64,000 bases of DNA from an uncultured Gammaproteobacteria bacterium. Lineage in GTDB: Bacteria; Patescibacteriota; Microgenomatia; UBA10105; UBA927. The translations under genes and the position numbers were made by a program. This document shows positions 2,144-59,716 of this stretch, one piece after another (within the stretch, counting starts at the first letter, position 1; each line of letters starts with the position of its first letter). The notes beneath the pieces were generated by a model. It saw nothing but the letters and a program-made list of their open reading frames with translations. It was not told where the DNA came from and ran no database searches. The DNA lies in NCBI GenBank assembly GCA_964573695.1, contig CAZNKB010000001.1, forward strand, positions 64,565 through 128,564, read 5' to 3'.

Positions 2144-2229
2144 ACTACCTCCTTACAGAACAAAATTATGTTTATAAAAATAATTAATCGACCTTAAAAT
2201 ATAAGTCGCTTTTGACATTTTAGCACATC

Positions 2230-8021: not shown

Positions 8022-8413
8022 AGGAAGCCAAACAATCTTCTCTGATACCGGAACGTAGAAAAGCTTCCGCTCCTGGGAGGAAATACTTCTTTCACGTTAC
8101 GAACTTCACGCTTCGGTCTCAACTCCGGCGGGTTGACCTCAGACCACCGCGCTTCGTAAAGCGTATCTAAACCGGACTCTTTAAGTACTCGGCTCACGCT
8201 GTCATATTGGGAATATGCGCGCTCTCAATTCCCATTTCTATAGTCGCTGCCCGCGGAACCCATAACGACAAAGGCAAAATTTGCCGCTTCACTGTCGACC
8301 GTCAGCTCATGGACTGCCCACGGCATATGTGAAGCAAGTTCTTTCCGAAGATTTATAAATCGTTGCTGCATGGAATTTGGCCGAAGTATAGCCCCGGAGA
8401 ATACACTTGTCAA
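8018..8413 (-). pseudogene. ORF of about 131 codons interrupted by a single in-frame TGA, likely a pseudogene of unknown function
   Basis: The 62-aa ORF at 8225..8413 stops at TGA. The same frame continues without further stops for 68 more codons (ERAYSQYDSVSRVLKESGLDTLYEARWSEVNPPELRPKREV...) down to a TAG at 8018. TGA is a genuine stop elsewhere (rpsJ). Confidence 0.35.
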
Positions 8414-8433
8414 ACGTATCCCCGCACCGCAGG

Positions 8434-9636: not shown

Positions 9637-10274
9637 ATATAAAGTGTACCGGTTTCGGTATGTAAACGGAATGCCGCTAGCGTTTGGTATACCGTACCGG
9701 TAGGATATGTCCTCGATTCATTAAGCACAATGGACTCAACAGACAGTGTCACCGGAATATACTCCGCAAACGAACGAATACGCGTCTGTGACAGAGTACC
9801 TTTGAGTCTTGCGAGTGTCACATGCGGGAGAACGTGATGACCGTTTTTGAGAACCACCCCTCCACATTCCTTTTTGAGAAATGCCGCTACTTTGCGAGTA
9901 ATAAGAGAAACCAGCGCCCGAAACTCGGGAGTGCCCGCAAACCTTGCCCAGATCATTTTCGGGTCTGACGGAGTGGCGACTTCAAATCTTAGAAACGGCA
10001 ATTTCATGGAAGGAAACGTATCCAAAAGCTGCCGAAGGAATTCGATAAGCTTTGGTATATGCCGTTTTTCAACATTCCCAATAAACCGTACCGTGATATG
10101 GAAATTCGCCTGTCGCGTCCAGTACGTGGGAACCTTGCCGGTTACCTCTGCACGCATGACTTTCTTCTGATACGTGACGAATGCCTCCTGCCAGATAGGC
10201 CCCAGTGGAATAGCGAGAAACAGGCGTTTGGTTTGTGATTTGTGCACCCAAATTTTGTTCAAACTTGTATGCAT
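9633..10274 (-). CDS. thpR: RNA 2',3'-cyclic phosphodiesterase (2H phosphoesterase, ThpR/LigT family)
   Basis: 213 aa with two HxTx motifs (HITVRF and HVTLAR) at the expected spacing. Confidence 0.75.
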   Translation of the reverse strand: MHTSLNKIWVHKSQTKRLFLAIPLGPIWQEAFVTYQKKVMRAEVTGKVPTYWTRQANFHITVRFIGNVEKRHIPKLIEFLRQLLDTFPSMKLPFLRFEVATPSDPKMIWARFAGTPEFRALVSLITRKVAAFLKKECGGVVLKNGHHVLPHVTLARLKGTLSQTRIRSFAEYIPVTLSVESIVLNESRTYPTGTVYQTLAAFRLHTETGTLYI

Positions 10275-10283
10275 ATCCTCTGC

Positions 10284-10670
10284 TTACTCATCCTCAGGTG
10301 GGTAAAATATCAACCCCGTATAGTCCTTACAGCGATCATCATGTTCGCGCTTGAGGACACTCATATCTTTCTTTTTTTCCCGGAAAAACATCATATAGGT
10401 ATTTACGACCGGGCGGATCCAGGGGAGGATCTGACGTGGAGATTTTTGTTCTGCCTGCATAAGGCACATGTCCCAATCCGTCAAAACACCATATGATCTG
10501 GTACAGGCACTAGACCAGTCAGAGAGTACTGTCTGCGATTGGGCTGCTATGGTGTCTAAGGAATCCTCAAATTGTACGTTACACGAAACCTCACGCAATC
10601 GGAGCGCAAATGAGAAAAAGGAAAAAATGACGACGCCAATAAATACGATGAGTGTAATGGCAACTTTCAA
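10284..10670 (-). CDS. Hypothetical membrane-anchored protein
   Basis: 128 aa with an N-terminal TM helix and no recognisable motif. Confidence 0.4.
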   Translation of the reverse strand: MKVAITLIVFIGVVIFSFFSFALRLREVSCNVQFEDSLDTIAAQSQTVLSDWSSACTRSYGVLTDWDMCLMQAEQKSPRQILPWIRPVVNTYMMFFREKKKDMSVLKREHDDRCKDYTGLIFYPPEDE

Positions 10671-10681
10671 ATCTATTTCTA

Positions 10682-11284
10682 TTATTGGTCCTTAAAGGCC
10701 CACAACGCAAGAGCGACGTATGTACGATATGGCTTCCATTTACTCGTTAATCGCTTCATATATGCATCGGTTGGCTCTTTTTTGAGCTTATAAAGCGACT
10801 GGATCGCCTTTCGTAATCCCAAATCCCCAAATGAAAATACGTCTTCTCTTCCTAAAGAAAACATAAGGAACATTTCAGCCGTCCAGCGACCTATCCCTTT
10901 TACTCGGGTCAGCTGCTGTATCACTTCCTCGTCTGTTTGCGCTGTCAAACTACCAAATATAACACTCCCGTCCGCAACAGCCCTGGCAAGCGATTTAAGG
11001 TACGCGACCTTTGACCATGAGACGCCCATATCCCGAAGTTTCTGGTCAGGAACTGCCAGAAGTTTTTCTGGAGTCACGGACGAACGAGGGAAAAGCGAGC
11101 AAAACCGCGTAAAAATCGTCCTGCCCGCCTTCTCGGACAACTGTTGATTTATGATCGCTTCAGCCAAATCCTTAAACGGCGTGCGGGAAAGCACAATTGC
11201 TTCTTTTCTGACGTGGTGAAGAATAGGCTCCAGTCTTGGATCCCGGGAACGCAAATGCTTTTGGATACGTGTACGATCGTACAT
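10682..11284 (-). CDS. alkA: DNA-3-methyladenine glycosylase II, AlkA-like (HhH-GPD superfamily)
   Basis: 200 aa. LTRVKGIGRWTAEMFLMFSLGREDVFSFGDLGLRKA matches the HhH-GPD motif with the catalytic Asp. Confidence 0.75.
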   Translation of the reverse strand: MYDRTRIQKHLRSRDPRLEPILHHVRKEAIVLSRTPFKDLAEAIINQQLSEKAGRTIFTRFCSLFPRSSVTPEKLLAVPDQKLRDMGVSWSKVAYLKSLARAVADGSVIFGSLTAQTDEEVIQQLTRVKGIGRWTAEMFLMFSLGREDVFSFGDLGLRKAIQSLYKLKKEPTDAYMKRLTSKWKPYRTYVALALWAFKDQ

Positions 11285-11437
11285 ATACTAGTCAGACGGA
11301 TAATATTGCTCGAGTGCTGAATCGGCCGCTACGCATCCGAATCGTATGCACTCAACCAAAGCAGTAAATCCAGGAAAAATCGTGGGTACGCGATCGATAG
11401 TAACCAGTTCGACCGGCATAGGAGAAAGGGTTATGCT

Positions 11438-11911
11438 TTACCACTTAAAGTGGGCAAACGCCTTGTTTGCATCAGCCATACGATGCACGGTATCGCGTTT
11501 CTTGATCGCTTCACCCAAGCCTTTGGACGCGTCAAGAAGCTCGACTGCTAGCTTTTCTGCAAATGAATGGAATTCCCGATTCGATCGTTTTTTGGCGAAT
11601 TCGACGATCCAACGGATAGCAAGAGCGACCCGACGATCCCCCCGCACTTCCATAGGAACCTGATATGAGGCTCCTCCTACTCGGCGGGCTTTGACCTCTG
11701 TTTTGGGCCCTACCGTATTGATCGCTGTTTCAAATACTTTGATCGGATCCTCTCCTTTGTCTTTGATGATATCGAGAGCCTTGTACACAAGCGCTTCCGC
11801 CACCGTTTTTTTGCCGCTCAACATCACTCGGTTCACGAAGCGGGTCACCAACCTGTTTCCGTATATGGGATCCGCAGGAAGGAGTTTATGATATGTTTTA
11901 CTTGTTCTCAT
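11438..11911 (-). CDS. rpsG: 30S ribosomal protein S7
   Basis: 157 aa, collinear with S7 (KRRVGGASYQVPMEVRGDRR). Confidence 0.95.
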   Translation of the reverse strand: MRTSKTYHKLLPADPIYGNRLVTRFVNRVMLSGKKTVAEALVYKALDIIKDKGEDPIKVFETAINTVGPKTEVKARRVGGASYQVPMEVRGDRRVALAIRWIVEFAKKRSNREFHSFAEKLAVELLDASKGLGEAIKKRDTVHRMADANKAFAHFKW

Positions 11912-25781: not shown

Positions 25782-26576
25782 TCATTTACACGCTACGAGA
25801 AGCGTATGGTGTTTCTGACTACCGAGGTTTATATCAACTGAAGTACCATTGATCGTTTTGTCATCAAACATGACACGCATTGACCGGCTAACTCCAGGAA
25901 AATTATATCTCATCCCATAGATTTGGACTTGTATGTCGGACGGATCTGTTGCATCGACATGCACTTGAAGCGGTGGCAATTTTGCGACTGCCTCACCTCC
26001 TGCGGGAATAGACTGATTGGGCAACATGAGTCCTGGTATATTGACGGCAACACTTGCCGCAGGTTCTAATGGCGCACATCCGACGTTTTTGATGACGACA
26101 GATACTTCGGTTACTTTGAGCGCCACTACTCCGACTGCGATAAGAGTTAATATCCCCAGCGGCCCTTTGGCCGCTCCGAATATATTCCATGCGGATGTCG
26201 CTTTGTCCGCGATCGTTTTTTGAGAAAAATCATTGCCGATTTCCTTTTCTACACGAGTCACTTCTGATTTAAGCGTATTCCAGTATCCTAAGAAAAGGAG
26301 AAACGCCTTTTTCCGTTTCCTGTCCTCTGGGGAAAACTCAGGAATGGAGTCGAGAGCAAGGGATATGACTTCTCCTTTTTGTAAATGAGAAAATTTAGTC
26401 CCCGCTTTTGCGGCCGCATCAAGGGCTGCATTTAACTTCGGATGAATGTCGTATAACAACGTCCTGAGCGTCGGGATTGTGGAAGCATCAAGCGTTCCCT
26501 TTTGGAGAAGTTCCTGCGCAGCAGCAATACGTTTCTGCACCGTCTTCGCATCCATATATTGGAGGTATTGTAGCAC
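25782..26576 (-). CDS. Hypothetical single-pass membrane protein
   Basis: 264 aa with an N-terminal helical soluble region, one TM (GPLGILTLIAVGVVALKV) and a C-terminal extracytoplasmic region. Only 1 nt separates it from the downstream gene. Confidence 0.5.
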   Translation of the reverse strand: MLQYLQYMDAKTVQKRIAAAQELLQKGTLDASTIPTLRTLLYDIHPKLNAALDAAAKAGTKFSHLQKGEVISLALDSIPEFSPEDRKRKKAFLLFLGYWNTLKSEVTRVEKEIGNDFSQKTIADKATSAWNIFGAAKGPLGILTLIAVGVVALKVTEVSVVIKNVGCAPLEPAASVAVNIPGLMLPNQSIPAGGEAVAKLPPLQVHVDATDPSDIQVQIYGMRYNFPGVSRSMRVMFDDKTINGTSVDINLGSQKHHTLLVACK

Positions 26577-26602
26577 ACAATCAAAACAAAATTATTAGCG
26601 AA

Positions 26603-28162
26603 CTAGCTTAATTTTGACCTAAACTTCTCAAATACTTTTTGCGTATATACTTCCATGTCTTGCAAGTTTTCTTGCCTAATTGTAGTTTCGACGAAGTTTT
26701 CTATGCTATACGGTTTGATATTTACTTTCTTGCTCTCTGAAGAGCTTAATATGGAGGCGACATCAAAATAATCTTTGGTATCAGAATGAATAGTTGGCGC
26801 AACTAAAGATAAATATTTATTTCTATAGCTCTTAAACTCTTCCTCAGTATTCAAATGCCTTATCACAGACGTCGTTTCATTATTTAGTAGCTGTGTCTTA
26901 TTACGAATTAATGTTACTTCAATAAGCCAAAAAACCTCCGAAGAATAGACATCGATATCACCTAAATTACCAGGTGCGTGTGAGTAGGGCTTACCATATT
27001 GATCTGCTTTATAATTTGGCCTTAAATGAAATTTTTCGCCATAGGTTAATGCAATTAATATAGCAATATAAAACTCTAGTTTTAACGGTCTCGATATTTC
27101 TCTGAAATCCTCGATGACTATATTATTAGAATCTATAGACTTAATGCACTCAAGAATTTTCTTTTCGTCAATTTCATAAACTTTGATTAACTCAATTATT
27201 TTACTCGTATACTTTTCTCCATCTATCCTGTCTAAGCGTCTATACTTAACGACTAAAGATAAATACTGTTTATCTAAATGTGACAATTTATTATAATAAC
27301 TTTCTGCGTTAATTTTCTCGCCGGGCTCAAGTTCAAAACGAACCCTAAGCAAATCTAATATATATTCCAGTTTATTTTCGTTTATCTCAATAAATTTTAT
27401 TCCGCTGTAGCGAGTAGTAATGAAACCGGCAATATTCATAATTCTTCTTACAACATCTGGATAATCCTTCGTTACCGTGTTTATGGAGTTAGTAACCCCG
27501 TACTCATGTCTTAAATAATCATAAACTCCATCGAAATCAGAAAACTTATGTGAATCAATAACGTCAATAAATTGTTGAACATCTCCATTCTGGCTAAACG
27601 TTAATATTACAAATTGCTCGTATGTTAGCGCTCTTCCTTTCTCCTTTAGCTTTAGTAGCACTTCAAGTGCAAAACGGAAAAAATTGAAGTCATTTAGGAC
27701 GTTTCTATAAGGCGATTTTCTATTGTATTTCATCGCCTGTATCGAAAAAGCTTCCTGCTCATCTATTTCACCCCTAATAAGCTTATTAGCGATTTCAGAA
27801 ATTTTAAATGGCTCGTTATATTGTGAGTAAATCATGCCTAATTCCGATAAAGTTCTCATATATGTCCAAAAACGAGAAGGATACCCGCATGGAAAACCGC
27901 CATCTGCCCTTCTTGTAGAATTAACCTTAATTATAGCTCGCGACACATCTTCGTCAGTTAAATTATCAGAAATTAGTATACCTTTACTTGTTACCACTCC
28001 TACGCGGTACAAATGGCACATAATTTTCAATAAATTTCTGTCATTAAGAATGACGTTCTCAAAATTAACTAACTCAACCAAAATATCTAAGTACCGCTCA
28101 GGATTTCTTACCGCTGTTTCAAATGCCATTTGTTTATATTTAGGAGATATTTTATTAGTCAT
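26603..28162 (-). CDS. Putative Type II(S) restriction endonuclease (family unassigned; AlwI-like is a guess)
   Basis: 519-aa AT-rich ORF lying directly downstream of two tandem m6A methyltransferases. No conserved housekeeping motif. Context-based call. Confidence 0.5.
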   Translation of the reverse strand: MTNKISPKYKQMAFETAVRNPERYLDILVELVNFENVILNDRNLLKIMCHLYRVGVVTSKGILISDNLTDEDVSRAIIKVNSTRRADGGFPCGYPSRFWTYMRTLSELGMIYSQYNEPFKISEIANKLIRGEIDEQEAFSIQAMKYNRKSPYRNVLNDFNFFRFALEVLLKLKEKGRALTYEQFVILTFSQNGDVQQFIDVIDSHKFSDFDGVYDYLRHEYGVTNSINTVTKDYPDVVRRIMNIAGFITTRYSGIKFIEINENKLEYILDLLRVRFELEPGEKINAESYYNKLSHLDKQYLSLVVKYRRLDRIDGEKYTSKIIELIKVYEIDEKKILECIKSIDSNNIVIEDFREISRPLKLEFYIAILIALTYGEKFHLRPNYKADQYGKPYSHAPGNLGDIDVYSSEVFWLIEVTLIRNKTQLLNNETTSVIRHLNTEEEFKSYRNKYLSLVAPTIHSDTKDYFDVASILSSSESKKVNIKPYSIENFVETTIRQENLQDMEVYTQKVFEKFRSKLS

Positions 28163-29066
28163 AGTTTGTAACTAAAACCTCGTCAATTTTTTTCTTAGAA
28201 TTGTTGTGAAAACTTATGTAATTACTATTTATAGTATAAACCTTGTAGCTACGCATCCAAGCTTTAAATATATGGTTGTACACGTTTTTATGGAAAACTA
28301 TGTTTGATACTGCAAATTTAATTTTTTTTTCGTTCAACCAATCAAGTAATTTTATTAGTTCCATCTCCTTATCCGAATTCCACAGTTTATTATATTCACT
28401 AAAAGATATTAAATATGGCGGATCTAAATATACGAAATCCCCCTTTTGAAATTTAATTGATTTAATAAAATCTATGTAATCCATTGTTGAAATTATAATA
28501 TTTCTATCTTCCACCGCCGAAAAATAACTTTTTAGTGCGGAAGCGACGTTTATATTAAAGTCTACGTTGCCGACGGGGAGATTAAATTTCCCTTTTGAAT
28601 TAAATCTCAAAATACGATTGAAGCCGTAGATCAGAAGCATGTATAATTTTAGGTAGTCCTTTATTTTCTCTTTATTAAAATCATTTCTTAACTTAAGATA
28701 GCCTGGCTTATTAAACTTTGCATAATAAGTTTTAGTCCACTTTTTTCTATACAGTTTAGGTACCACGTCTTCCCAGTAGGAACGAGAAAGATTATATTTT
28801 TTTGCGATTTGATTAACTTTCGCAAACAACTTAGACCCATTATCTGAATTGCTTATTAAAAATTTATGTAGGCGGCAAATATTTTTGTCTATATCATTTA
28901 GTAGATAACTTTTTGCTTCTATATTTAAAAATACGGACCCTCCACCAACAAATGGCTCTATAAACCTAATAATTTTCGCGGGGAAATGTTTTTTAATTTC
29001 CGCCAATAATTTATACTTATCTCCAACATAAAAGAGTGGCGAGCGCTTAATGCTTGTTTTTCTCAT
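28155..29066 (-). CDS. Dam-class (D12) N6-adenine DNA methyltransferase M1
   Basis: Motif I FVGGGS and motif IV DPPY. The likely start is MRKTSIKRSPLFYVGDKYKLL at 29066; the track gives 29105. Confidence 0.8.
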   Translation of the reverse strand: MRKTSIKRSPLFYVGDKYKLLAEIKKHFPAKIIRFIEPFVGGGSVFLNIEAKSYLLNDIDKNICRLHKFLISNSDNGSKLFAKVNQIAKKYNLSRSYWEDVVPKLYRKKWTKTYYAKFNKPGYLKLRNDFNKEKIKDYLKLYMLLIYGFNRILRFNSKGKFNLPVGNVDFNINVASALKSYFSAVEDRNIIISTMDYIDFIKSIKFQKGDFVYLDPPYLISFSEYNKLWNSDKEMELIKLLDWLNEKKIKFAVSNIVFHKNVYNHIFKAWMRSYKVYTINSNYISFHNNSKKKIDEVLVTNYD

Positions 29067-30069
29067 ACGTTTTTGTAATAAATAACCACTCCTGGTGATT
29101 ATCAAAGTTTGTTTTTCCGCTATTAAAAAATCTGTGACTTTTTTTAAATATCATACTTTTGCCTTTTTCATTTAGAATCTCCTCTATTTGTTCGAGAGTT
29201 ATCTTGTTTCTGGAGGAGTGACTACGGGAGTTGTAGGTATTATTATACGAAACTACGATATAGTCACACTTTAAATTCTTTATGAGGTCGGCAAAAGCAT
29301 CTTTGGCCTCGACCGTACAATAACGGCTGGAATTTTCCGTGGGAGGCTTTAGAGCAACTCCGGATAATTTTCGCTTATCCCACTTCACTAATGTTTCGAG
29401 CAAATGATAAAAACGGCTATATTGTCTGGAGTTATACGGGGGGTCTATATAAACAACGTCTGCCTTAATTTTTTTTGCTAACGCATTTGCGTCCTGCCGG
29501 TATATATCCACCTTCTTTACCTTATGTGTATTTATCGGCCTGAGTAAGATTCTTTTATTGAGTATCGGTTTTTTGATATACGCATCATAATGACCAACCG
29601 TATTTGCATTTCTATCGACTGCATAAAGAAGTGATGTGAGAAGAATTGCATATTCTCTTTTGGATACCTTCTTTTTATTTTTTTCTATATCTTCACGTAT
29701 GAATCCTATGATTTTTGCGTTCTCGCGGGTAAAGTACTTCCCACCGAAATATCTGGAAAAATAATTAGGCGCTAATTCTTTCGCGTTTACTGAGTTATAG
29801 AGATCAAGATACTTTTTAATTTTTTTCGGCCGGAATTTACCCGAACCAAAAAAAGCATCGTAAATTACCTTGTTGGAATAGAGAAAGTCATTGATGATGA
29901 CATGCTTGTATTCCTTAATAGCTCTCGCGGAAATCACTCCAGTACCGGCAAACAGATCCGCAAATATTTTCCCCTCACAATTATTATCGATATGGGAAAA
30001 TATCCAATCTATAAGCTTAAATTTACTTCCGATATATCTTCTGCTCTCTAAACTAAATACCTTGTTCAT
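29047..30069 (-). CDS. Dam-class (D12) N6-adenine DNA methyltransferase M2
   Basis: Motif I FAGTGV and motif IV DPPY. The likely start is MNKVFSLESRRYIGSKFKL at 30069; the track gives 30147. Two tandem adenine MTases are typical of systems recognising asymmetric sites. Confidence 0.8.
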   Translation of the reverse strand: MNKVFSLESRRYIGSKFKLIDWIFSHIDNNCEGKIFADLFAGTGVISARAIKEYKHVIINDFLYSNKVIYDAFFGSGKFRPKKIKKYLDLYNSVNAKELAPNYFSRYFGGKYFTRENAKIIGFIREDIEKNKKKVSKREYAILLTSLLYAVDRNANTVGHYDAYIKKPILNKRILLRPINTHKVKKVDIYRQDANALAKKIKADVVYIDPPYNSRQYSRFYHLLETLVKWDKRKLSGVALKPPTENSSRYCTVEAKDAFADLIKNLKCDYIVVSYNNTYNSRSHSSRNKITLEQIEEILNEKGKSMIFKKSHRFFNSGKTNFDNHQEWLFITKTYEKNKH

Positions 30070-36757: not shown

Positions 36758-37465
36758 TTATATCCTCACGAGCTTGGCTTTGACGTTTAACCGGTAAAGA
36801 TACGTTCCGGGAGGCACGCACGTTACCAGGGTGATATACGAGTCGTCAAACCGCTGTTCAAGCGGAGACAAATCCGTGGGTTCTACGACTACTTTGTCCG
36901 TCACGATATATTTATAGCTTAATCCATCGTAGGTAATATTGATATTCGCGCCGATTTTGATCGTCGGGAGAGTCGCAAATATTGTTTTATAATCCTTGGT
37001 CCCCCGAAAAAACTGCGGGAGAGTGGAGTGACCGAAAATAACCGTGTTTCCGTACTCACCGGGTAGCCCCGTACCTCCGTAATGAATAAGGCTTTTGCCT
37101 AAATCATCACCCGCGATGATGACGCTTGCGTCCGTTAACCCCAATGTCGGAATGGAGAGGGTATAACTATTGACGGGAGCGGATACCTTTTTTTGCGGAG
37201 ACGTCGGAAACCACGTATTGGGATCGGTTATATCCTTCTGCCCGGCAGCATAGGCTATCTGGCTTCCGGCATCCTTGCCACCCAAATCCGCTATCGGGCT
37301 TACTGTTTTTGCCAGTACTATCTGATCCACAAAAAAAAACGAAACAATGGGCCACATCGTCCACAAAATGATAAAAAACCCCAACGACATGAGGATATAC
37401 GAAACAACAACCGGTCGGGGAACCGGACGACGGGGCACCGCTTTTACATATCGGTACATTGCCAT
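36758..37465 (-). CDS. Sortase-family transpeptidase
   Basis: 235 aa with an N-terminal TM and a TLVTCVPPGT (TLxTC) catalytic Cys motif. Confidence 0.7.
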   Translation of the reverse strand: MAMYRYVKAVPRRPVPRPVVVSYILMSLGFFIILWTMWPIVSFFFVDQIVLAKTVSPIADLGGKDAGSQIAYAAGQKDITDPNTWFPTSPQKKVSAPVNSYTLSIPTLGLTDASVIIAGDDLGKSLIHYGGTGLPGEYGNTVIFGHSTLPQFFRGTKDYKTIFATLPTIKIGANINITYDGLSYKYIVTDKVVVEPTDLSPLEQRFDDSYITLVTCVPPGTYLYRLNVKAKLVRI

Positions 37466-37470
37466 ACCTA

Positions 37471-39882
37471 TTACTGTACCATGACGGTTACCGAGATGTT
37501 GCCGCTTTGTATGGGCAAACGGGATTTGGTCGGCGACAACGCAAATCGGAATTCTGCCCCGCTGACGCCTTTTGTCTCTTTGAGAATCTCAAGGGCAGTA
37601 TCCACGTCTTTACCGGCAAGCGCACGCTTGAGTCCGGCCTCATCGATGTGTGGCAGCGAAACGGCGGTCAATTTAGCAGTCAACGTAATAGTACCGTCCT
37701 TTTTCACGGTCACTCGAGAAACCGATACGTTCGTCTGCTCCGGCGCCAGGGAGTATCCTGCCGGCACCTTTGCTTCAACAAGCGTCGACAACGCGGCCTT
37801 GATATCACTGTCGGAAATACTCACCCCTGTCACTTTCACCGTCACTTTCCCGTGGAGCTCATTTGCTTCCTGATCGAGTTCCGCATCGAACACCTTTTCC
37901 GATACCTCAGTTTTGATCGTCTCGTCGATCAGCCTTTCACCGCCAGCCACGGCAAGCAGTTGCTGCTTGGCCTGTGTCACCAGATCTGTCGTCAGTGCTT
38001 TAACGAGTGCATCCTGATCCGCTCGCGATACGACCGTCACTTGCTTACTGGTCCCTCCGGTAAAGGCAGACTCATTGCGGGCTGATATTTGATTACCACT
38101 CATATTGGCAAAGGTAAACTCCGAACTTGCTCCCACATTACCGTTTGGACCTATATCGCGGGCGGTTACATTGGCGGCCGCCTTCCCGAACGTTATGGAG
38201 CCAATACTTTCGCTTGCCGATGCCACAGAAACATCGCTGTCGAGCGTAAATGCAATACCGCCTGTAGAAAGCACCGTACCTTTCGGCAATGTTTTGCCAC
38301 TGGTTACCTTGTTATAAATTGTCACTGTGCCCTTGGCAGGATCCCCCACGTTTTTTTTACCGGTAATGGCAATTGTTTTTTCTCCGCTTACGGACTGCTC
38401 TACTATCTTCCCCGGGATAATCTTGGTCGACGGATCTGCAGTAGTGGCCGATGTGTTGACCGTCACCGAGGTCGACTCATCGACGGATTGACTGGAAACC
38501 AATACGGTAACCATGACCTTTGGCAAGGCAAAGTAAAGTCCTCCCGCCACAAGGATAAAAAGGACAACGCCGATAATTACGGGAATTGTACCGCCCTTGA
38601 AACGCGGCATGTTCGACAACATACCCTTCACGGACCCAAATCCCGCGAACGAAAATGGGGGTAACTTGAATTTCGCGGGTAACGATATGGGTAACTTTTT
38701 GCCGGCAGACACAGGTGCTTTATGAGTCTGCGACGAGGTATGCTGATGCTCCAGCACGTCTTCATGACTAAACCCAAGGGCCTCCGGACTCACCACTTCC
38801 ACATTTGACAGTTCGTCATCTCCGCCCGTCATTTCAATAATTTGGGACTGCGTCTTTTCGGACTCATCGTCGCGCACCACTCCGTCCTCCGCAGTTTCTT
38901 CTTCGTCGTCTGGTGCGTCGCCTTGTGTGGTTGCTGCCTCATCCGTCTCTTCTTCCTCCGAAAATGCGCTTGACTCATCTTCCTCCTCTTCCGCTTCTTC
39001 TTCATCGATAACTTGAGTAGATGCCGTTGCGACAGCTGACTCCTGAGAGGTAGAGGGCATAGTAGGTTGAGCAACGGTCGAAACGCTTGCATCGGGTGAT
39101 TCCGTACGACTTTCACCGATTTCTTGAGACAACTCTGAAGCTCCCGCCAAAGAAATCGAGGTTAACAGTGTTTCGAGTGCAATACCTTCAATTTTGGGGA
39201 AATGCAGAAAATTCGCTCTCGTCGACCATGGATGCTTCAATAATTTTGAACGGACTTCCTCAAGTGTTGCCGTGTTGCCGCCATAGAGGAGTATGCGCGA
39301 GGGTAATACGTCACCGTCTTGGTGTTTTTTGAGAATCCCTTCAAGTGCAGCCGCCGGATCGTCATCGATGTCCATTGCGTCTTCGTGTGTCAGATTACCG
39401 ACGCGAAAAAGCGATATATGGGCACGCTTCCCTGAACATCCGAAAAGAATCACGCTGGGAGGAACGCCTTCGTCTTTTTTCAGTGAAAAAGCTATCGCCT
39501 GCGACAGGGGCACAAATCCGACCGGCGTAAGCTCAAGCATGACGGTAAGTTTCTTAAGGTGCGGGCGTATCGCCTCGAGGATATTGCCCTCGTGAGTCAG
39601 ATACGTGCCGGGCATGCCAAATACGGTTTTGGAGATTGCCTTCGCTACCCCTACCTTATCTTCGGCGGCAGAAAGCAGCCGATCCACTACCTGCGTGCGT
39701 GATTCCCACGTATCATCAGCCACCAATGCATGTGCAAAGCTGGAAATACGGGGCGTCTGTGAAGCGTCCAAGTGCCAGGTAGCGACGGCTGCGGCATCGG
39801 TATCGAGATAAAGCGAAAAAAAATAATTTTTCGCCTCTTCCTTCTTGGGCAATAAGTCGGTAAGCACGTGTGGAAGTTTCAT
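37471..39882 (-). CDS. Large bitopic membrane protein with an N-terminal actin-like (FtsA/PilM-like) ATPase-fold candidate, an acidic linker, one TM and a C-terminal extracytoplasmic beta-rich domain
   Basis: 803 aa. The N-terminus has phosphate-1-like YFFSLYLDTDAAAV and LLYGGNTA motifs. A poly-E linker (EEEAEEEEDE) follows, then a TM (IPVIIGVVLFILVAGGLYFALP), then about 330 aa rich in T/S/V/G. Confidence 0.45.
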   Translation of the reverse strand: MKLPHVLTDLLPKKEEAKNYFFSLYLDTDAAAVATWHLDASQTPRISSFAHALVADDTWESRTQVVDRLLSAAEDKVGVAKAISKTVFGMPGTYLTHEGNILEAIRPHLKKLTVMLELTPVGFVPLSQAIAFSLKKDEGVPPSVILFGCSGKRAHISLFRVGNLTHEDAMDIDDDPAAALEGILKKHQDGDVLPSRILLYGGNTATLEEVRSKLLKHPWSTRANFLHFPKIEGIALETLLTSISLAGASELSQEIGESRTESPDASVSTVAQPTMPSTSQESAVATASTQVIDEEEAEEEEDESSAFSEEEETDEAATTQGDAPDDEEETAEDGVVRDDESEKTQSQIIEMTGGDDELSNVEVVSPEALGFSHEDVLEHQHTSSQTHKAPVSAGKKLPISLPAKFKLPPFSFAGFGSVKGMLSNMPRFKGGTIPVIIGVVLFILVAGGLYFALPKVMVTVLVSSQSVDESTSVTVNTSATTADPSTKIIPGKIVEQSVSGEKTIAITGKKNVGDPAKGTVTIYNKVTSGKTLPKGTVLSTGGIAFTLDSDVSVASASESIGSITFGKAAANVTARDIGPNGNVGASSEFTFANMSGNQISARNESAFTGGTSKQVTVVSRADQDALVKALTTDLVTQAKQQLLAVAGGERLIDETIKTEVSEKVFDAELDQEANELHGKVTVKVTGVSISDSDIKAALSTLVEAKVPAGYSLAPEQTNVSVSRVTVKKDGTITLTAKLTAVSLPHIDEAGLKRALAGKDVDTALEILKETKGVSGAEFRFALSPTKSRLPIQSGNISVTVMVQ

Positions 39883-39888
39883 TCAGTT

Positions 39889-41805
39889 TTAGGTAAGCGA
39901 TGCGTAAATTCTTCGCACTCCTGCGCTACTTGCTTCCTCTTTTAGTATTGTAAAGTGACCCAACCCACCTGTAAAGCTGACGTGCGGCCCTCCGCAAAAT
40001 TCAGCGGAAAAATAATCACCTTTCCCTGCGCGTTCAGGATCAATTCCCTCAGAAAGTCCCACGAAATACACGCTGACACGATCAGGGTATTTGGCGCCGA
40101 ACTCCATTTGCGCACCGATCTTTTCCGCACTCTCCTTGGACATCTCTACCCGTGTTACCGGAAGATTCTGCTGTATTGCATGGTTTACGAGATCACTGAC
40201 TTTTTCTAATTCCTGAGAAGTAAATTTCTTTGAAAAGCTCACATCAATACGGAGACGCTCCGCTGTAATATTGCTTCCCCGCTGTTTGATCGTCGGATCG
40301 ACACATTTCTGAAGTGATGCCAAGAGCAGGTGATGCGCCGTGTGGAGGTCTGTCGTGGCTTTACTATGGTCCGCAAGACCACCCTTGAACATACCGGCAG
40401 CAGCAGTACGGGAAAGCTCCTGATGTTTACGAAATTCTCTTTGGAATTCCTCGCGATCCACCTGCTGACCTTTCTCAAGTGCCAATTCGTACGTAAGCTC
40501 CCACGGGAATCCGTAACTTTGCAGCAGATCAAATGCAACGGTACCGGTGATCGTGTCATGTTTTCCCAACTGTACCAGGCCGACTTTCAGCACTTTTTCA
40601 AAACGGGTGATCTCTTCTTTGAGAATCTGCCCCCTATCCAAAAATTCCTGGCTGTCCGGTTCAAAATACACGCCGCGATAAATCGCCCCTACCTCCTTGT
40701 AGACACTCATTCCTAACTCCGCTTTTGATCCGTTCCCCCCGAGCTGATGCATTTTTACGACCGCTCTGCGGATGAGACGGCGCAACACATATCCCTGCTG
40801 CTTATTCCCAGGAAACAATCCTTCGTTGATCATAAACACCGCGGCCTTGAGGTGATCTGCTATCACGCGCATCGCCTGGGTTTCTTTTATATCCCTGCCG
40901 TATGTAACGCCGGAAAACGTTTCGAGGTTGGTAATAATTCCTGCAAACAAATCAGTCCGGAAAACATCCGGATCATCTGCTACCGCCGCGGTCATCCGTT
41001 CCAATCCTCCGCCAAAATCCACATTTTTTTGCGACAACTCCTTTAGACTCCCGTCTTCCATTTTCTGATATTGCATAAACACCGAATTGGCGATTTCCAT
41101 AAATCTGCCGCAATCACAGTTTGGATGACACGCCTCCTGCTTGTACAAAGATTTTTCATGAAGTCCCAGTTCTTTTCCGAAATCAAAAAATACCTCACTG
41201 TCCGGCCCTCCCGGTTCTCCCGGCGGCATTTTTTCCGGCTCGCCCGACCTACTCCACCAGTTTTTACGGGCACTGTACGTAAATATGCGGGCATCCATGG
41301 GTGAGACGGATTCCCAAACCTTCGCCTCTATGCCGACTTTTTGGAATATTTGTTTCCATATTTCTATAGACTCTTCATCCTTAGGAATCCCTGAACTACC
41401 TTCTCTGGCAGAGCCAGATCCGGCTTCGCCGGAAAATACGCTTACATATAGGCGTTTGGGGTCAAGTCCCAACTCGCGAGTCAAAAAATCGAATATCCAT
41501 GGCAGCTGCTCTTTTTTGAAATAATCCCCAAGACTCCAGTTGCCAAGCATTTCAAAAAACGTGGTGTGGCGGTTGTCCCCGACCTCTTCGATATCCTGAG
41601 ACCGAAATGATTTCTGACTGTCGACAAGCCGAGTTCCCGCCGGATGCGATTGCCCCAAGAGATAAGGAACCAGAGGTTGCATACCGGAACTCGTAAATAA
41701 CGTAGTCGGGTCATTAAGCGGCACGATAGGCGCCGAGGGTATCTCTGCATGCCCCAACGCTTTGAAGTACTCTATATATTTACGCCTGACATCAGCCGAC
41801 TGCAT
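39889..41805 (-). CDS. alaS: Alanine--tRNA ligase (short form lacking the C-Ala domain)
   Basis: 638 aa with the class II catalytic core (HTTFFEMLGNWSLGDYFK) and an editing domain HxxxH...CGGPH. It ends right after the editing domain. Confidence 0.9.
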   Translation of the reverse strand: MQSADVRRKYIEYFKALGHAEIPSAPIVPLNDPTTLFTSSGMQPLVPYLLGQSHPAGTRLVDSQKSFRSQDIEEVGDNRHTTFFEMLGNWSLGDYFKKEQLPWIFDFLTRELGLDPKRLYVSVFSGEAGSGSAREGSSGIPKDEESIEIWKQIFQKVGIEAKVWESVSPMDARIFTYSARKNWWSRSGEPEKMPPGEPGGPDSEVFFDFGKELGLHEKSLYKQEACHPNCDCGRFMEIANSVFMQYQKMEDGSLKELSQKNVDFGGGLERMTAAVADDPDVFRTDLFAGIITNLETFSGVTYGRDIKETQAMRVIADHLKAAVFMINEGLFPGNKQQGYVLRRLIRRAVVKMHQLGGNGSKAELGMSVYKEVGAIYRGVYFEPDSQEFLDRGQILKEEITRFEKVLKVGLVQLGKHDTITGTVAFDLLQSYGFPWELTYELALEKGQQVDREEFQREFRKHQELSRTAAAGMFKGGLADHSKATTDLHTAHHLLLASLQKCVDPTIKQRGSNITAERLRIDVSFSKKFTSQELEKVSDLVNHAIQQNLPVTRVEMSKESAEKIGAQMEFGAKYPDRVSVYFVGLSEGIDPERAGKGDYFSAEFCGGPHVSFTGGLGHFTILKEEASSAGVRRIYASLT

Positions 41806-54001: not shown

Positions 54002-55783
54002 TCACACTTCTAATACCACGGGAACGATGAGCGGACTCCTGCCTGTTTCCTTAAGAAGATACTCCTTAAGAGCCTCCTCTATCCGCTTTTTGACCGATAG
54101 CCAATCAGTAATTCTTCCTTTTTTGAGTGTCAGCGCATGCGAAACCACTGATGACGCCCGGTTCAGGAGCTGTTGTGAACCTTTTACATAAACAAACCCC
54201 CTCGTGATAATCTCCGGCGGACTTGTCATGCGTCCGGTAGATGCATCTACGGGAACGACGACGACGACAATCCCTTCGTGTGCTATGGTCTGACGGTCCT
54301 TGAGCACGACATTACCTACGTCGCCTATACCTAATCCGTCGATCATTATGTCTTCCAGCATGACCCGGTCAACTACCCTTGGCGCGCTATTTTGGCTAAA
54401 TTCCATTACTTCCCCGTCTTCAGGAATGAGTACGCTTCGTTTGTCATACCCCAAATCTCCTGCCAGTCTCCGATACTGCATCAGGTGTTTATAGGTCCCT
54501 CCAATGGGCCAAACATATTTCGGTCCGACAGCGGACAAAAGCAGCATCATGTCTCCCGAGCTTCCGTGTCCGGATACGTGGAGATCCTCCATAATGTCAC
54601 TGTAGGAAACTCTTGCTCCATGGCGGTAAATCTGATCAATCAGCTTATTGACGTCGTTTTCCCTTCCGGGTATCGGATCGGCTGAGATAATAACGGTATC
54701 GGCGTCGGTCAGTCTCACCATTTTGTGGGCATCGCTTGCGATACGGAACAGGTTAGACGATGGCTGACCTTGGGCACCTGCGACAACGAGAAATTGCTTG
54801 TTGGCCGGAAGCCGTTTCAGGTCGCGGTCGTTGATGATGACGTCACGGGGAAACTTCATATAGCCTAACTTGACTGATTCCTCCACATTCTGATCGATAC
54901 TTCTGCCTAAGAAAGCAATTTTCCGGCCATGCTTTTGTGCAAGCTCGATTGCAAGCTGAATACGGGATATATTGCTCGATTGCGTCGTAAAAAGCACTTT
55001 CCCCTGACTCAACCTGAGCTCCTTTTCTATCGTTTCACCGATGATTTGCTCTGAAGGAGTAAATCCCGGCCGCTCGCTTCCCAAGCTGTCAGAAAGCATA
55101 CAAAGCACTCCTTTTTTGCCTACAGCGTTTATTTTTTCCAGTTCGGACGGCTTCCCGTCGAGCGGGGTAGGATCGAATTTAAAGTCACTTCCGTGATAAA
55201 AGATACCAATAGGTGTTTCAATCACCAGATGCGATGTATCCGGCACGGAATGCGTAAGCCGGATAAACGAAACCCGAAATACTCCAGCCGTCACCTGTTT
55301 ATCAAACGTCATCGGGCGTACGCGATCCCGAATCGGGGTTTCCTTGAGCTTCAAGTTAGCGAACGCGGCTGCCAGTGTCGGCCCATACATCGGCACCCTT
55401 CCTAATTTGGGATAAATATACGGCAAACCGCCGATATGGTCGTCATGACCGTGAGTGAATACGATTGCGCGTATTTTGTCCCGTTTGTCCATAAGATAAC
55501 GGACGTCCGGAATCACCAGATCGATACCAAACATCTCTTCATCCGGAAACCCTATGCCGCAATCCACTATCAGAATATCCCGGAGCTTTCCGTCGTATCT
55601 ATACTCATACAGATACATATTTTTCGTAACGTTTCCCGCTCCGCCAAGCGGTACGATACGCACCGCGTCTTTTCCGGTATTTGGGCTAAACGATCTCCCC
55701 TCGAATACTTGTTTCGCCTGAAACTTCGGGGGGCGTTGTATATACATTCTTCTCATATGTTTACCTTCTTTCTTTAGAGGCAA
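54002..55783 (-). CDS. rnj: Ribonuclease J (beta-CASP metallo-beta-lactamase)
   Basis: 593 aa with HGHDDHIGGLPY (HxHxDH), beta-CASP motifs and a C-terminal domain. Confidence 0.9.
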   Translation of the reverse strand: MPLKKEGKHMRRMYIQRPPKFQAKQVFEGRSFSPNTGKDAVRIVPLGGAGNVTKNMYLYEYRYDGKLRDILIVDCGIGFPDEEMFGIDLVIPDVRYLMDKRDKIRAIVFTHGHDDHIGGLPYIYPKLGRVPMYGPTLAAAFANLKLKETPIRDRVRPMTFDKQVTAGVFRVSFIRLTHSVPDTSHLVIETPIGIFYHGSDFKFDPTPLDGKPSELEKINAVGKKGVLCMLSDSLGSERPGFTPSEQIIGETIEKELRLSQGKVLFTTQSSNISRIQLAIELAQKHGRKIAFLGRSIDQNVEESVKLGYMKFPRDVIINDRDLKRLPANKQFLVVAGAQGQPSSNLFRIASDAHKMVRLTDADTVIISADPIPGRENDVNKLIDQIYRHGARVSYSDIMEDLHVSGHGSSGDMMLLLSAVGPKYVWPIGGTYKHLMQYRRLAGDLGYDKRSVLIPEDGEVMEFSQNSAPRVVDRVMLEDIMIDGLGIGDVGNVVLKDRQTIAHEGIVVVVVPVDASTGRMTSPPEIITRGFVYVKGSQQLLNRASSVVSHALTLKKGRITDWLSVKKRIEEALKEYLLKETGRSPLIVPVVLEV

Positions 55784-55819: not shown

Positions 55820-56920
55820 TTAGTAAACTTCTATAAAATTTTTAATATTGTCTTCCGTAATACGGAAGGTTGTTGCTTTTCCTTCGACGATAGACAGTGC
55901 TACTTTGCGACACACACTGTTTAACGTCCGCTCAATGCTCCGTATACCGGCGTCGTATCCTAACGGCCGCACAAGCTTCGCCCACATTGCCTCATCAATC
56001 GTCAGATTCTCGGCTGTCAAACCGGATTCTTTCATAAGCGCGGGCATGACATAATCCTTCGCAATCCTAATCTTTTCTTCATCCGTATAGGACGGCATCT
56101 GAATGGGTTCCAAACGGTCAAGGACAGCCGTTGCGATATTGGTCGTATTGTTACTTGTCGCGATAAATAATACTTCAGACAGGTCGAACGGATAATCCAT
56201 ATAGTGATCGACGAATGCGGAATTTTGCTCCGGATCCAGCAACTCGACCAGGACTCCCATAATATCGCCACGTGCGTGTTCTGACACGCGGTCGATTTCA
56301 TCGAGCAATACCACCGGATTTTTGGTTCCCGCAAACCGGAGTCCTTTTAGGATGAGGCCGATTTCCGCATCCGGACGAACCCGCGACTGACCACGGAGCT
56401 CAAGAGCATCGGACATGCCTCCGAATGCGATGCGGACAAACCGTCGCCCCATAGCCTGAGCTATCGATTTGGCAAGCGTCGTCTTACCGGTACCGACAAG
56501 ACCCACAAGGCATAAAATCGGCGCACGCCGCGCAAGCATCGCATGGGTGGATTTCGCCTCCGCCTCCCGCTTATCCTCATCGGAAGATTCTTTTGCCCAG
56601 CGGTCCTGGTTCAGTTTAATAACCGCCAGATACTCCAGAATTCTTTCTTTGACCGGCTGGAGCCCATAATGATGCATTTCCAGAATTTTGCGGGCGTTTA
56701 CAAGATCCAGTTGATCCGAACTTCGTTCGTTCCACGGGAGGTTAATCACCCAATCGATATACCGAAGCATCTGTTCGATGTGAACCCGGGCGGATATATC
56801 ATGTTCCAAGCGCTCTATTTCCTCGAGAGAAGCCGCCACGCGTGTTTCCATTTCGGGAGGAACGTGCGCTTCTTTGAGCTTTTTGCGAAGAACGCCTACT
56901 TCATCGAGCAGTCTGGACAT
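55820..56920 (-). CDS. Lon-family AAA+ ATPase lacking the N-terminal LON domain and the C-terminal protease domain
   Basis: 366 aa. The helical region (LDLVNARKILEMHHYGLQPVKERILEYLAV) plus the AAA module (GLVGTGKTTLAKSIAQAMGRRFVRIAFGGMSD, sensor-2) align with Lon. The ORF stops at the AAA/protease boundary. Confidence 0.7.
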   Translation of the reverse strand: MSRLLDEVGVLRKKLKEAHVPPEMETRVAASLEEIERLEHDISARVHIEQMLRYIDWVINLPWNERSSDQLDLVNARKILEMHHYGLQPVKERILEYLAVIKLNQDRWAKESSDEDKREAEAKSTHAMLARRAPILCLVGLVGTGKTTLAKSIAQAMGRRFVRIAFGGMSDALELRGQSRVRPDAEIGLILKGLRFAGTKNPVVLLDEIDRVSEHARGDIMGVLVELLDPEQNSAFVDHYMDYPFDLSEVLFIATSNNTTNIATAVLDRLEPIQMPSYTDEEKIRIAKDYVMPALMKESGLTAENLTIDEAMWAKLVRPLGYDAGIRSIERTLNSVCRKVALSIVEGKATTFRITEDNIKNFIEVY

Positions 56921-56936
56921 GATTCTATACTACCAC

Positions 56937-59153
56937 TTAAAAACGTCTTCGTCCTCGGTCAAATCCGCCCCGGCGATTGCCTCCGCCATGACGATCCGAG
57001 CCCCCGCGACTATCGCGACGCTCTGGGGATTTCTTTTGGGCATCTTCACCGAAAAGCATGGAAAGATTGATTCTGTGCATATCATCAATCTCCATGACCC
57101 GAACTTTTACCACTTGTCCGATCGTCACGATTTTTGCGGGATCATCCACAAAGTCCACGCTCATTTGCGAAACGTGCACCATGCCTTCTTTCCCCGGAAG
57201 TATTTCGACGAATGCACCAAACGGCAATATCCGCTTGACCTCTCCTTCAAACTCCTCACCAACCTCTACATCGTGAGTGAGTCCTTCTACCCATTCAACG
57301 GCTTTCTGTACATTGTCCGCATCCGGACCGGAAATAAATACCGAGCCGTCATCGTTGACATCGACAGTGGCTCCCGTTGTCGCAATGATATTGCGGATTA
57401 CTTTTCCTCCGGGACCGATCACTTCTCCGATGCGTTCCGTCGGAATTTTGATGACTTTCACTTTCGGCGCATATTGAGAAACCGTCTGTCTTGGACTTGC
57501 GATTACCGCGGTAATTTTGTCCAATATCATCATACGGGCCACGCGCGCCCGTTCGAGCGTTTGATCCACGATTTCATCCGTGAGTCCGTCGATTTTGATA
57601 TCCAGTTGGATTGCGGTAATACCGTTTTTGGTTCCCGCGACCTTAAAGTCCATATCTCCGGAAAAGTCCTCTATCCCTAAAATATCCGTGAGCAAGACAA
57701 ACGAGTCTTTATCAGACATAAGACCAACCGAGATACCTGCAACCGGCTCCTTGATCGGAACGCCGGCGTCCATAAGGGCTAATGTAGAGCCGCATGTCGA
57801 AGCCATAGAGGTCGATCCGTTGCTGCTCATAATTTCAGAAACAAGCCGAATGGTATAGGGAAATTCTTCTTCGGTTGGAATAACCGCCATAAGCGCACGC
57901 TCAGCGAGAGCTCCATGACCGATTTCGCGTCTGCTCGGAGTTCCGACTCTCCCTGTTTCCCCCACAGAATATGGAGGCATACTATAGTGGTGGATATATC
58001 GTTTGGACTCCTCCCCCATTGGACTCTCGATAAGTTGCTCGAGACTGGGAGTACCCAGTGTCGCCACCGTCAACGCCTGTGTTTGACCGCGCTTAAACAT
58101 TGCGCTCCCGTGCGTGCGGCTTAACACTCCTACTTCTATTTCAATCGGGCGCACTTCATCAATCTTCCGTCCGTCAAAACGCTTGCCATGAAGCAGCACG
58201 TTCTCTTTTACCTGCTTTTTAAACAATGCATCCAGCGCTCCTTCGATATCCTTGACGCTGTAATCTGTGCCGTAATTTTCAGCAATGACTTTTGCCAGTT
58301 CTGCCACTTCGGTTCCGCCAAATTCCTTTTCCGCTTTTTTGGCGAATGCAGCGGTCATTTCTTTTTTGTAGTCCTTCTCAATTTTTTTCTTGAGCTCGTC
58401 TGCTTCGGAGACCTCCGTTACGGCGATTTTACTCTTGCCGACGGCTTTCACGAGCTCATTGATAAGGTCTATAATTTCGCCGTTTGCTTTTTTTGCCTCC
58501 AATACGGCTCCCGCCACGACGGATTCCGGCGTTTCACAAAATCCACCTTCCAACATGACCACTTTTTCCCTGCTCGAAGACACGACGAAATCAAATTCAC
58601 TCGTTTCCTGTTCCGTAATCGTCGGGTTTATAATGTACGCACCTTTTTCCGTTCCGGCTTCTTTGACATATCCCACGCGTACACCCGCAATCGGACCGTT
58701 CCACGGTATCGGGGAAATAGCGATAGCGGCCGATGTGGCAACTAACCCTAGTACATCCGGATCGTTTTGCCCGTCAACACTAAGCACCGTAATGATGACC
58801 TGCACGTCATGTTTGTAGCTTTTGGGAAACAGAGGCCGGATGGACCGGTCGATCACGCGACCCGCGAGTACTGCATCGTCAGTGGGTCGACCTTCCCTTT
58901 TGACCCAACGCGATCCTTTGATCCGTCCTCCGGCGTAAAGCCGTTCGACGTATTCGACGGAAAGCGGAAAATAATCAAGGGTCGTTTCTTTGCTCGACGC
59001 GGTCACCGTGGCAAGCACCATGGTATCGCCGTATTTGGCAAGCACGGCAGCTGATGCCTGTTCGGCAAATCGTCCAACCTCAAGAGTCAACGCTTTTCCT
59101 GCTATTTCAGCAGATTTGGAGACAATCTTCATATTCTTTCCGCTACTAGCCAT
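56937..59153 (-). CDS. pnp: Polynucleotide phosphorylase with a C-terminal RGG-rich tail
   Basis: 738 aa with two RNase PH domains, KH and S1 domains. The tail is ...RRDSRGGSDRHGGGNRRGGFDRGRRRF. Confidence 0.95.
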   Translation of the reverse strand: MASSGKNMKIVSKSAEIAGKALTLEVGRFAEQASAAVLAKYGDTMVLATVTASSKETTLDYFPLSVEYVERLYAGGRIKGSRWVKREGRPTDDAVLAGRVIDRSIRPLFPKSYKHDVQVIITVLSVDGQNDPDVLGLVATSAAIAISPIPWNGPIAGVRVGYVKEAGTEKGAYIINPTITEQETSEFDFVVSSSREKVVMLEGGFCETPESVVAGAVLEAKKANGEIIDLINELVKAVGKSKIAVTEVSEADELKKKIEKDYKKEMTAAFAKKAEKEFGGTEVAELAKVIAENYGTDYSVKDIEGALDALFKKQVKENVLLHGKRFDGRKIDEVRPIEIEVGVLSRTHGSAMFKRGQTQALTVATLGTPSLEQLIESPMGEESKRYIHHYSMPPYSVGETGRVGTPSRREIGHGALAERALMAVIPTEEEFPYTIRLVSEIMSSNGSTSMASTCGSTLALMDAGVPIKEPVAGISVGLMSDKDSFVLLTDILGIEDFSGDMDFKVAGTKNGITAIQLDIKIDGLTDEIVDQTLERARVARMMILDKITAVIASPRQTVSQYAPKVKVIKIPTERIGEVIGPGGKVIRNIIATTGATVDVNDDGSVFISGPDADNVQKAVEWVEGLTHDVEVGEEFEGEVKRILPFGAFVEILPGKEGMVHVSQMSVDFVDDPAKIVTIGQVVKVRVMEIDDMHRINLSMLFGEDAQKKSPERRDSRGGSDRHGGGNRRGGFDRGRRRF

Positions 59154-59281: not shown

Positions 59282-59716
59282 TTATGTTAAACCTAACTTT
59301 TCTTTTATTTGTGTGAATCGTTTCTTATCTTTTTTCTCGAGGTAATTTAACAACCTCCGGCGCTTACTGACAATCCCCAATAGTCCTCGGCGTGAGTGAT
59401 TATCGTGCGGGTTACTCCGTAAGTGCCCCACGAGCTTCTCAACTCTTCTGGTGAGCAATGCAACCTGTACCTCGGGACTCCCCGTATCTCCGTTGTTGAC
59501 TGCAAATTGTGCGATAATCTCTTGTTTCTCAGGAGAAGGAATCGCTGTTTCTTCAGCTTTCGCTTTCGCTGCTGCTTTTGTCGCCTTGGTAACTTTCACC
59601 GGTTTTGTGGCTGACGAAACTTTGGCTGCCGGTGCCTTTTTTGCGGCTTTCACTTCTTTCGCGACTTTGGTGGCTTTCACCGGTTTTGTCGCTTTTTTGG
59701 TAGTTTTTGCTGGCAT
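59282..59716 (-). CDS. rpsO: 30S ribosomal protein S15 with a roughly 55-aa N-terminal Lys/Ala-rich (histone-H1-like) extension
   Basis: The C-terminal 89 aa are collinear with S15 ([38 protein letters not shown]...). The N-terminus is [31 protein letters not shown]... with no ATG at the canonical S15 start. Confidence 0.85.

Follow-up and report, generated by a model that had tools for sequence, protein, structure and literature searches.

A predicted Lon-type AAA+ ATPase family of Microgenomates and Dojkabacteria without protease and LON N-domain, in part of its members encoded between pnp and rnj

Lon is usually seen as the archetypal single-chain AAA+ protease, with motor and peptidase always fused. 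In the 64-kb stretch of DNA analyzed here (in the following, the window), an open reading frame (ORF) of 366 aa at 55820–56920 on the minus strand, with an ATG start and its stop codon at 55820–55822, encodes a Lon-type AAA+ ATPase lacking both the protease and the N-domain. This raises the question whether the locus represents the remnant of a broken lon gene, one half of a split protease or an ATPase acting on its own.

According to a preliminary description of the sequence, the ORF aligns with Lon from the helical region to the end of the AAA+ module and stops before the S16 domain, and the comparisons with TIGR00763, PRK10787, Pfam and PDB all agree with this. Residues 10–351 cover positions 257–571 of the 795 of the TIGR00763 (lon) profile at 336.6 bits (cut-off 608.05) and residues 5–365 positions 248–581 of the 784 of PRK10787 at 268.4 bits (cut-off 891), hence reaching only about half and about a third, respectively, of the cut-offs, because the N-domain and the protease are missing. 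Pfam assigns AAA to residues 136–273 and Lon_lid to residues 297–349, and neither LON_substr_bdg (PF02190) nor Lon_C (PF05362, S16) was matched in the 366-aa ORF. The start codon of the ORF falls at the position of about residue 248 of Lon, pnp ends 16 nt upstream, and the C-terminus corresponds to the AAA+/S16 boundary of LonA, where the S16 domain would begin. By alignment with 4ypl, 7fd4 and 6v11 and by the helices of an AlphaFold2 (AF2) model, residues 1–104 (56609–56920, minus strand) represent the end of the long helix of LonA and the three-helix bundle (NTD3H). They are followed by a charged, variable insertion preceding the Walker A motif (residues 105–131, 56528–56608, minus strand), which is modeled by AF2 at low confidence and not found in most canonical LonA, whereas the Lon lid (alpha) subdomain (residues 276–366, 55823–56095, minus strand) also matches the alpha-domain structures 1x37, 4git and 1qzm in the PDB. 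All strong matches to solved structures are LonA proteins (3m6a at E = 7e-83; 4ypl with residues 6–329 aligned to query residues 6–353). The AF2 monomer (pLDDT 73.7, shallow alignment, pore-loop region at low confidence) was used for fold confirmation alone, and the best 50 PDB matches listed by Foldseek are LonA chains throughout. Hence, the protein shares with LonA the AAA+ module with three-helix bundle and Lon lid, at about 40–45% identity over the bundle, the AAA+ large subdomain and the lid, but it departs from this group in the curated score, the LON N-domain, the S16 Ser-Lys domain and the aromatic-hydrophobic pair of pore-loop 1 (LonA represented by TIGR00763/PRK10787 and by 3m6a, 6on2/6v11, 4ypl and 7fd4).

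The likeness to LonA extends to Walker A and B, sensor-1, Arg finger, sensor-2, the bridging Glu and the Tyr/Trp pair of NTD3H. Walker A is present as GLVGTGKT (residues 140–147, 56480–56503, minus strand; GPPGVGKT in canonical Lon) with invariant K146 and T147, and Walker B as VVLLDE (residues 203–208, 56297–56314, minus strand) with invariant D207 and E208. With the residue roles described for Yersinia pestis Lon (K362-type Walker A, E447, N473, R484, R542, Y294, and W297; PMC7239648), the invariant sensor-1 N257 (56150–56152) and Arg finger R269 (56114–56116), together spanning 56114–56152 on the minus strand, are equivalent to N473 and R484, and sensor-2 R327 inside the Lon lid (55940–55942, minus strand) to R542. 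Likewise, E231 corresponds to E447, the bridging Glu of the PS1-beta-hairpin, and D242, nearly invariant in 68 close homologues, to E458. In NTD3H, Y54 is equivalent to Y294 and common to the family and LonA, and W57, invariant among close homologues, is equivalent to W297. In the alignment, conservation of K146, T147, D207, E208, E231, N257, R269, and R327 reaches at least 95% both across the family and across LonA. Thus, the full residue set for ATP binding and hydrolysis in an oligomeric ring is kept, including the trans Arg finger and the bridging Glu, and retention of the trans-acting elements argues for an ATP-hydrolyzing oligomer. From these conserved trans-acting residues alone, we infer that hexamers may form also without a protease ring.

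The window protein is not a singular case. A search space of 5.8 billion protein clusters and genome and metagenome scans yielded more than 240 protein clusters and 40 loci with the same short architecture (about 350–510 aa) and with neither a LON N-domain nor S16, the named members belonging to Microgenomates-type bacteria (Gottesman-, Levy-, and Shapirobacteria) and Dojkabacteria. Among the matches listed, at least 120 closest clusters at 75–100% identity all measure 342–375 aa, and the precomputed Pfam annotation of 120 out of 120 contains neither Lon_C nor the LON N-domain. These clusters derive from NCBI, JGI, ENA and Logan assemblies, and are assigned to Gottesmanbacteria, Microgenomates or Patescibacteria where named. 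On short contigs from two independent read assemblies, an identical protein is encoded, again flanked by pnp and rnj. Database labels for family proteins read “AAA family ATPase” or “ATP-dependent Lon protease,” the latter being misleading. An exhaustive search of 50%-identity representatives gave one close match (70%). More distant short proteins at 39–55% identity (P0133, P0140, P0141, P0142, P0143, P0146, P0148, P0156, and P0238) have a common C-terminal end point and often bear low-complexity N-terminal extensions. A profile search with the distant subgroup retrieved at least 120 clusters of 366–632 aa, none with Lon_C or the LON N-domain among the matches listed, those with names being nearly all Candidatus Dojkabacteria. 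The scan of GTDB genomes found at least 12 short and at least 68 canonical LonA loci, and a scan of metagenomes that started from the distant subgroup at least 28 further short ones. Accordingly, the comparison of orthologues proposed in the preliminary description returns the same short architecture in close and in deeply diverged relatives.

In a neighbor-joining tree of the common module, 23 AAA-only sequences group in a single clade to the exclusion of 68 LonA. Such a topology fits a single ancient event in which both flanking domains were lost, with the limit that neighbor joining on a sampled set is no rigorous test. In syntenic loci, identity to the window protein is 49–58%, compared with 45–59% for pnp, 44–64% for nusA, 49–55% for ftsK, 42–46% for rnj and 41–49% for infB. 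The AAA-only gene is thus paced like pnp, nusA and ftsK, in the manner of a core housekeeping gene and not of a decaying remnant. Together with the homologue lengths, the shared architecture in diverged relatives and the invariant ATPase residues, this rate disposes of the “degenerated Lon” that had been considered for the locus. Judged by conservation, the proteins almost certainly constitute a real, conserved, ATPase-competent Lon family devoid of protease. No curated family in Pfam or NCBIfam has the AAA-only Lon architecture, and a description of a protease-less Lon from CPR/Patescibacteria was not found in the open-access literature, which is weak evidence of absence; apparently, the family has been undescribed so far. 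LonC and BrxL are comparable as Lon-family variants with altered domain function. LonC, however, keeps the protease and has a dead ATPase, the opposite of the present family, and BrxL-type proteins carry a Lon protease-like domain. Membership in an anti-phage defense system was also considered and rejected, as PADLOC gave only weak generic AAA matches for the window protein (best TRIP13 at E = 5e-8 over about 90 residues) and no match to BrxL.

Besides the lost domains, the family differs from LonA in motifs that are 93–100% conserved in the latter. GPPGVGKT is changed to GL[VAQ]GTGKT, RGDPxSA of the pore-loop-2 region to R[AG]DIMGV, and YTREAGVR to PLGxDxGIR. The most conspicuous change concerns pore-loop 1, where the sequence RGQSRVRPDAEIG (residues 176–188, 56357–56395, minus strand), nearly invariant in the subfamily of the window protein and found in 61 of 67 close homologues, replaces RGHRRTY[VI]GxxPG of LonA. 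By this, Tyr398, Ile399 and Gly400 become Arg182, Pro183 and Asp184, with Arg182-Pro183 being invariant in 68 close homologues and R180 likewise in the subfamily, while RRTY is present in all of 119 canonical Lon sequences. Family-wide, the consensus reads RGxS[RK]xxP[DE]AEPG, thus xP[DE]AEPG at the place of TY[VI]G. Among 51 diverse members, the Gly400 position is Asp or Glu in 43 and a Glu follows two residues on in 48, whereas an aromatic residue occupies the Tyr398 position in 12, or in 24 when the preceding position is also counted. The corresponding Lon residues, Y398 and I399, are described as intercalating into the polypeptide during its translocation (PMC7239648). Replacement of this pair along with loss of the protease makes canonical substrate threading by the motor no longer likely and suggests a motor that would operate without it; given the aromatics retained at or near the Tyr position, some members may still have residual threading ability. 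For the same reason, the preliminary description as a stand-alone Lon-type unfoldase in an RNA-degradation neighborhood holds for the architecture and, in the window lineage, for the neighborhood, but the term “unfoldase” is not established with the canonical Tyr-hydrophobic-Gly pore loop replaced.

Taken together, we slightly favor a stand-alone LonA-derived ATPase ring, presumed to be hexameric, that would act without proteolysis. In this scenario, a LonA ancestor in the Microgenomates/Dojkabacteria part of the CPR would have lost the N-terminal substrate-recognition and the S16 protease domains, and the three-helix bundle, AAA+ large subdomain and lid would then have been held under strong purifying selection. 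The protein would assemble into an ATP-hydrolyzing hexamer devoid of proteolytic activity and serve as a chaperone-like remodeler or holdase, not as a motor that processively threads substrates into a peptidase; in the window lineage, its gene would be transcribed together with pnp and rnj within a nusA-infB-rpsO-pnp housekeeping block. The chaperone-like remodeler mechanism specifically is advanced only tentatively. A precedent for useful Lon ATPase action without proteolysis exists in LONP1, whose anti-aggregation function is reported to need ATP hydrolysis and not protease activity (PMC8368198). In contrast to the family protein with its altered loop and missing protease, LONP1 retains the full LonA length, a canonical pore loop and protease activity. 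A large and strongly conserved family consisting of the motor only and having a rewritten substrate-gripping loop would offer a natural separation of functions, from which one could learn how the Lon ATPase acts without proteolysis, bearing on the chaperone-like role debated for mitochondrial Lon as well as on protein, and possibly RNA, quality control in CPR bacteria with minimal genomes.

The genomic context points to RNA decay as a further candidate process. In line with the preliminary description, pnp (56937–59153, encoding a PNPase with an Arg/Gly-rich C-terminal tail) lies immediately upstream and rnj (54002–55783, RNase J) immediately downstream, both on the minus strand like the AAA-only gene (X in the following gene orders). 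The gap to pnp is 16 nt and that to rnj 36–75 nt depending on the choice of start codon, as the true start of rnj may be the ATG at 55756 or 55747. The complete order in the window is nusA, infB, a DHH-family gene, rpsO, pnp, X, rnj, ftsK and a RodZ-like HTH gene, all on the minus strand. It recurs in loci L003, L006, L007, L008, L009, and L014 and, up to the contig limit, in L041, with X at 49–80% identity to the window protein and with the reading frame of X overlapping that of rnj in L006, L009, and L014. Another subclade shows the order pnp-X-udg-rnj (L094 and L102–L104) or X-udg-rnj (L087 and L105); X-udg adjacency is found in L011 as well, and udg is absent from this position in the window lineage. 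Over the evaluable loci, pnp is located at most 1.2 kb upstream in 10 of 27 and rnj at most 1.2 kb downstream in 11 of 28, so that the RNA-degradation neighborhood of the preliminary description is not universal, and udg follows directly in 8 of 32. Elsewhere, X is preceded by a cysteine desulfurase gene (L012, L093, and L099) or adjoins a type-IV-secretion-like cluster or a Peptidase_M23 gene, including the complete Dojkabacteria genome CP129478.1.

Two of the neighboring genes deserve a separate remark. In many family members, a gene of the UDG superfamily (uracil-DNA glycosylase-like) is placed directly after X, often with overlapping stop and start codons (L011 at 9980–11695, L012 at 2180–3993, L087, L094, and L102–L105). 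In two other loci, X is divergent from groES-groEL with a spacer of about 90–160 nt (L005 at 7757–9835 and L010 at 7875–9871). Heat-shock control by CIRCE was considered and dismissed, as no exact match to this element occurs in 82 loci and none in the two groES-groEL intergenic regions.

From this context, it can be proposed that the protein assists the RNA-decay machinery as an accessory ATPase, with a ring that would remodel or regulate PNPase and/or RNase J or their RNA-protein substrates. In its favor are the tight same-strand arrangement with both short gaps, its preservation at about 47–58% identity in the seven syntenic loci, the X/rnj frame overlaps and the second arrangement with udg. 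Scanning 50–64 kb for promoters and terminators gave 19 promoter-like sites (16.3 in shuffled sequence) and 22 terminator-like ones (14.8), none of them in the pnp-X or X-rnj gap, which is compatible with co-transcription and otherwise uninformative. As a possible variant, the ring might engage the Arg/Gly-rich C-terminal tail of the PNPase of these lineages, the basic tail being, speculatively, opposed to the acidic pore loop of the family. Nevertheless, linkage to pnp and rnj is missing in most Dojkabacteria loci and in L005, L010, and L012, where unlinked members adjoin groESL, the cysteine desulfurase, the UDG-family gene, the type-IV-secretion-like cluster or Peptidase_M23, and an RNA-binding domain is absent. 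Moreover, the whole block from nusA to rodZ is syntenic and, therefore, adjacency may be inherited gene order and not functional coupling. In part of the family, the RNA-decay neighborhood is thus genuine, closely packed and ancient, and as evidence for a functional link to RNA decay it is suggestive, not compelling; an accessory role of this kind appears unlikely on balance. Rather doubtful still is the more far-reaching version, in which the Lon of the Microgenomates/Dojkabacteria lineage, its pore loop now acidic, has become an ATPase dedicated to non-proteolytic work and is an integral, co-transcribed part of a PNPase-RNase J decay assembly, attached, for instance, through the basic PNPase tail. 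If true, the family would add a novel type of degradosome component, and Lon-type proteolysis would be missing from these bacteria altogether.

Apart from this, two ribosome- and RNA-related proteins of the block show unusual termini. The PNPase ends in a disordered, basic tail rich in Arg, Gly, Ser, and Pro (56937–57020, minus strand) with the terminal sequence ...RRDSRGGSDRHGGGNRRGGFDRGRRRF. Similar basic tails are found within the last 70 PNPase residues in all Microgenomates-type loci examined (L003, L004, L006–L009, L014, and L041), while the tail is much shorter in the single non-CPR PNPase of the set (L016). The rpsO gene (59282–59716, minus strand) encodes an S15 protein with a Lys/Ala-rich N-terminal extension of about 55–60 aa resembling histone H1 tails. 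Here, the Pfam S15 domain begins at residue 64, and the extension is shared with the closest relative (L003) and missing in more distant loci.

Two-component AAA+ proteases are common, and the ATPase could also be one half of a split Lon, feeding a chamber whose S16 or other peptidase is encoded elsewhere, as in ClpXP or HslUV. The family protein is comparable to these ATPases in being a stand-alone polypeptide of the HCLR clade of similar size. Moreover, the aromatic-hydrophobic pore-loop pair is kept in some members (e.g., SRAYLDAEPG and SRAFLDAEPG), and the S16 searches covered only the 64-kb window and flanks of up to 10 kb. For these searches, an S16 profile was built from four canonical Lon protease domains, which as a control detects every canonical Lon locus. 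In the six frames of the window, nothing was found with this profile (best E = 1.6), neither a separate protease half beside the gene, the lack of which had already been stated in the preliminary description, nor an overlooked protease-domain ORF near it. Likewise, 40 family loci with up to 10 kb of flanking DNA to each side, amounting to 530 kb, gave no S16 match. An adjacent protease half is hence excluded for the window and for the 530 kb around these loci. Other large ORFs of the window were also inspected as hidden Lon or protease candidates and rejected, one of 803 aa having no Pfam match and the others encoding AlaRS, EF-G, RpoC, and similar proteins. The ATPases of ClpXP and HslUV keep the aromatic-hydrophobic-Gly pore loop and are usually encoded beside their peptidase. 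In contrast, the family gene has no adjacent peptidase in the window and the 40 loci, and the Tyr-hydrophobic-Gly threading motif is lost in most members, with Arg-Pro-Asp instead in the window subfamily. Furthermore, the C-terminus coincides with the end of the lid domain, leaving no additional segment for docking. A split Lon is, consequently, improbable.

Even less can be said for a nucleic-acid-directed ATPase, i.e., a Lon-derived ring or clamp acting on DNA or RNA instead of proteins, which we consider very improbable. It is true that the DNA motor RuvB belongs to the same HCLR clade as Lon (PMC7239648), that the depositors of 6n2i titled this Lon “DNA-binding ATP-dependent protease La,” that udg, ftsK, pnp, and rnj are frequent neighbors and that R180 and R182 are invariant in the window subfamily. 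However, the pore-loop residues conserved throughout the family are acidic (Asp/Glu and Glu) and therefore unfavorable for binding a phosphate backbone, Arg182 is limited to the window subfamily, and no nucleic-acid-binding domain has been gained. Finally, a truncation, frameshift or decaying lon pseudogene, including an assembly truncation, has virtually no standing, as against the bare fact that the ORF ends at a domain boundary are the same length and C-terminus in hundreds of independent NCBI, JGI, ENA, and Logan assemblies, a mere 36 nt from stop codon to rnj with S16 remnants in no frame, and the invariant catalytic residues and core-gene-like evolutionary rate.

Several other features were observed in passing. 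Several records that combine gene content typical of Patescibacteria with the CPR-specific AAA-only gene (L003, L004, L006, L007, L009, and L010; TPA assemblies) are titled “uncultured Gammaproteobacteria bacterium” in GTDB, which looks like mislabeled taxonomy. In the window, a low-GC island at about 26000–30000 (GC of 0.33–0.37 versus about 0.48 elsewhere) with an AlwI-type restriction endonuclease gene (26603–28162, minus strand) is probably a horizontally acquired restriction-modification island. The aforementioned 803-aa ORF (37471–39882, minus strand) is situated directly upstream of a sortase gene (36758–37465, minus strand) and may encode a sortase-anchored surface protein. The alanyl-tRNA synthetase (39889–41805, minus strand) has 638 aa comprising the class-II core and the second additional domain, and is noticeably shorter than the usual bacterial enzyme.
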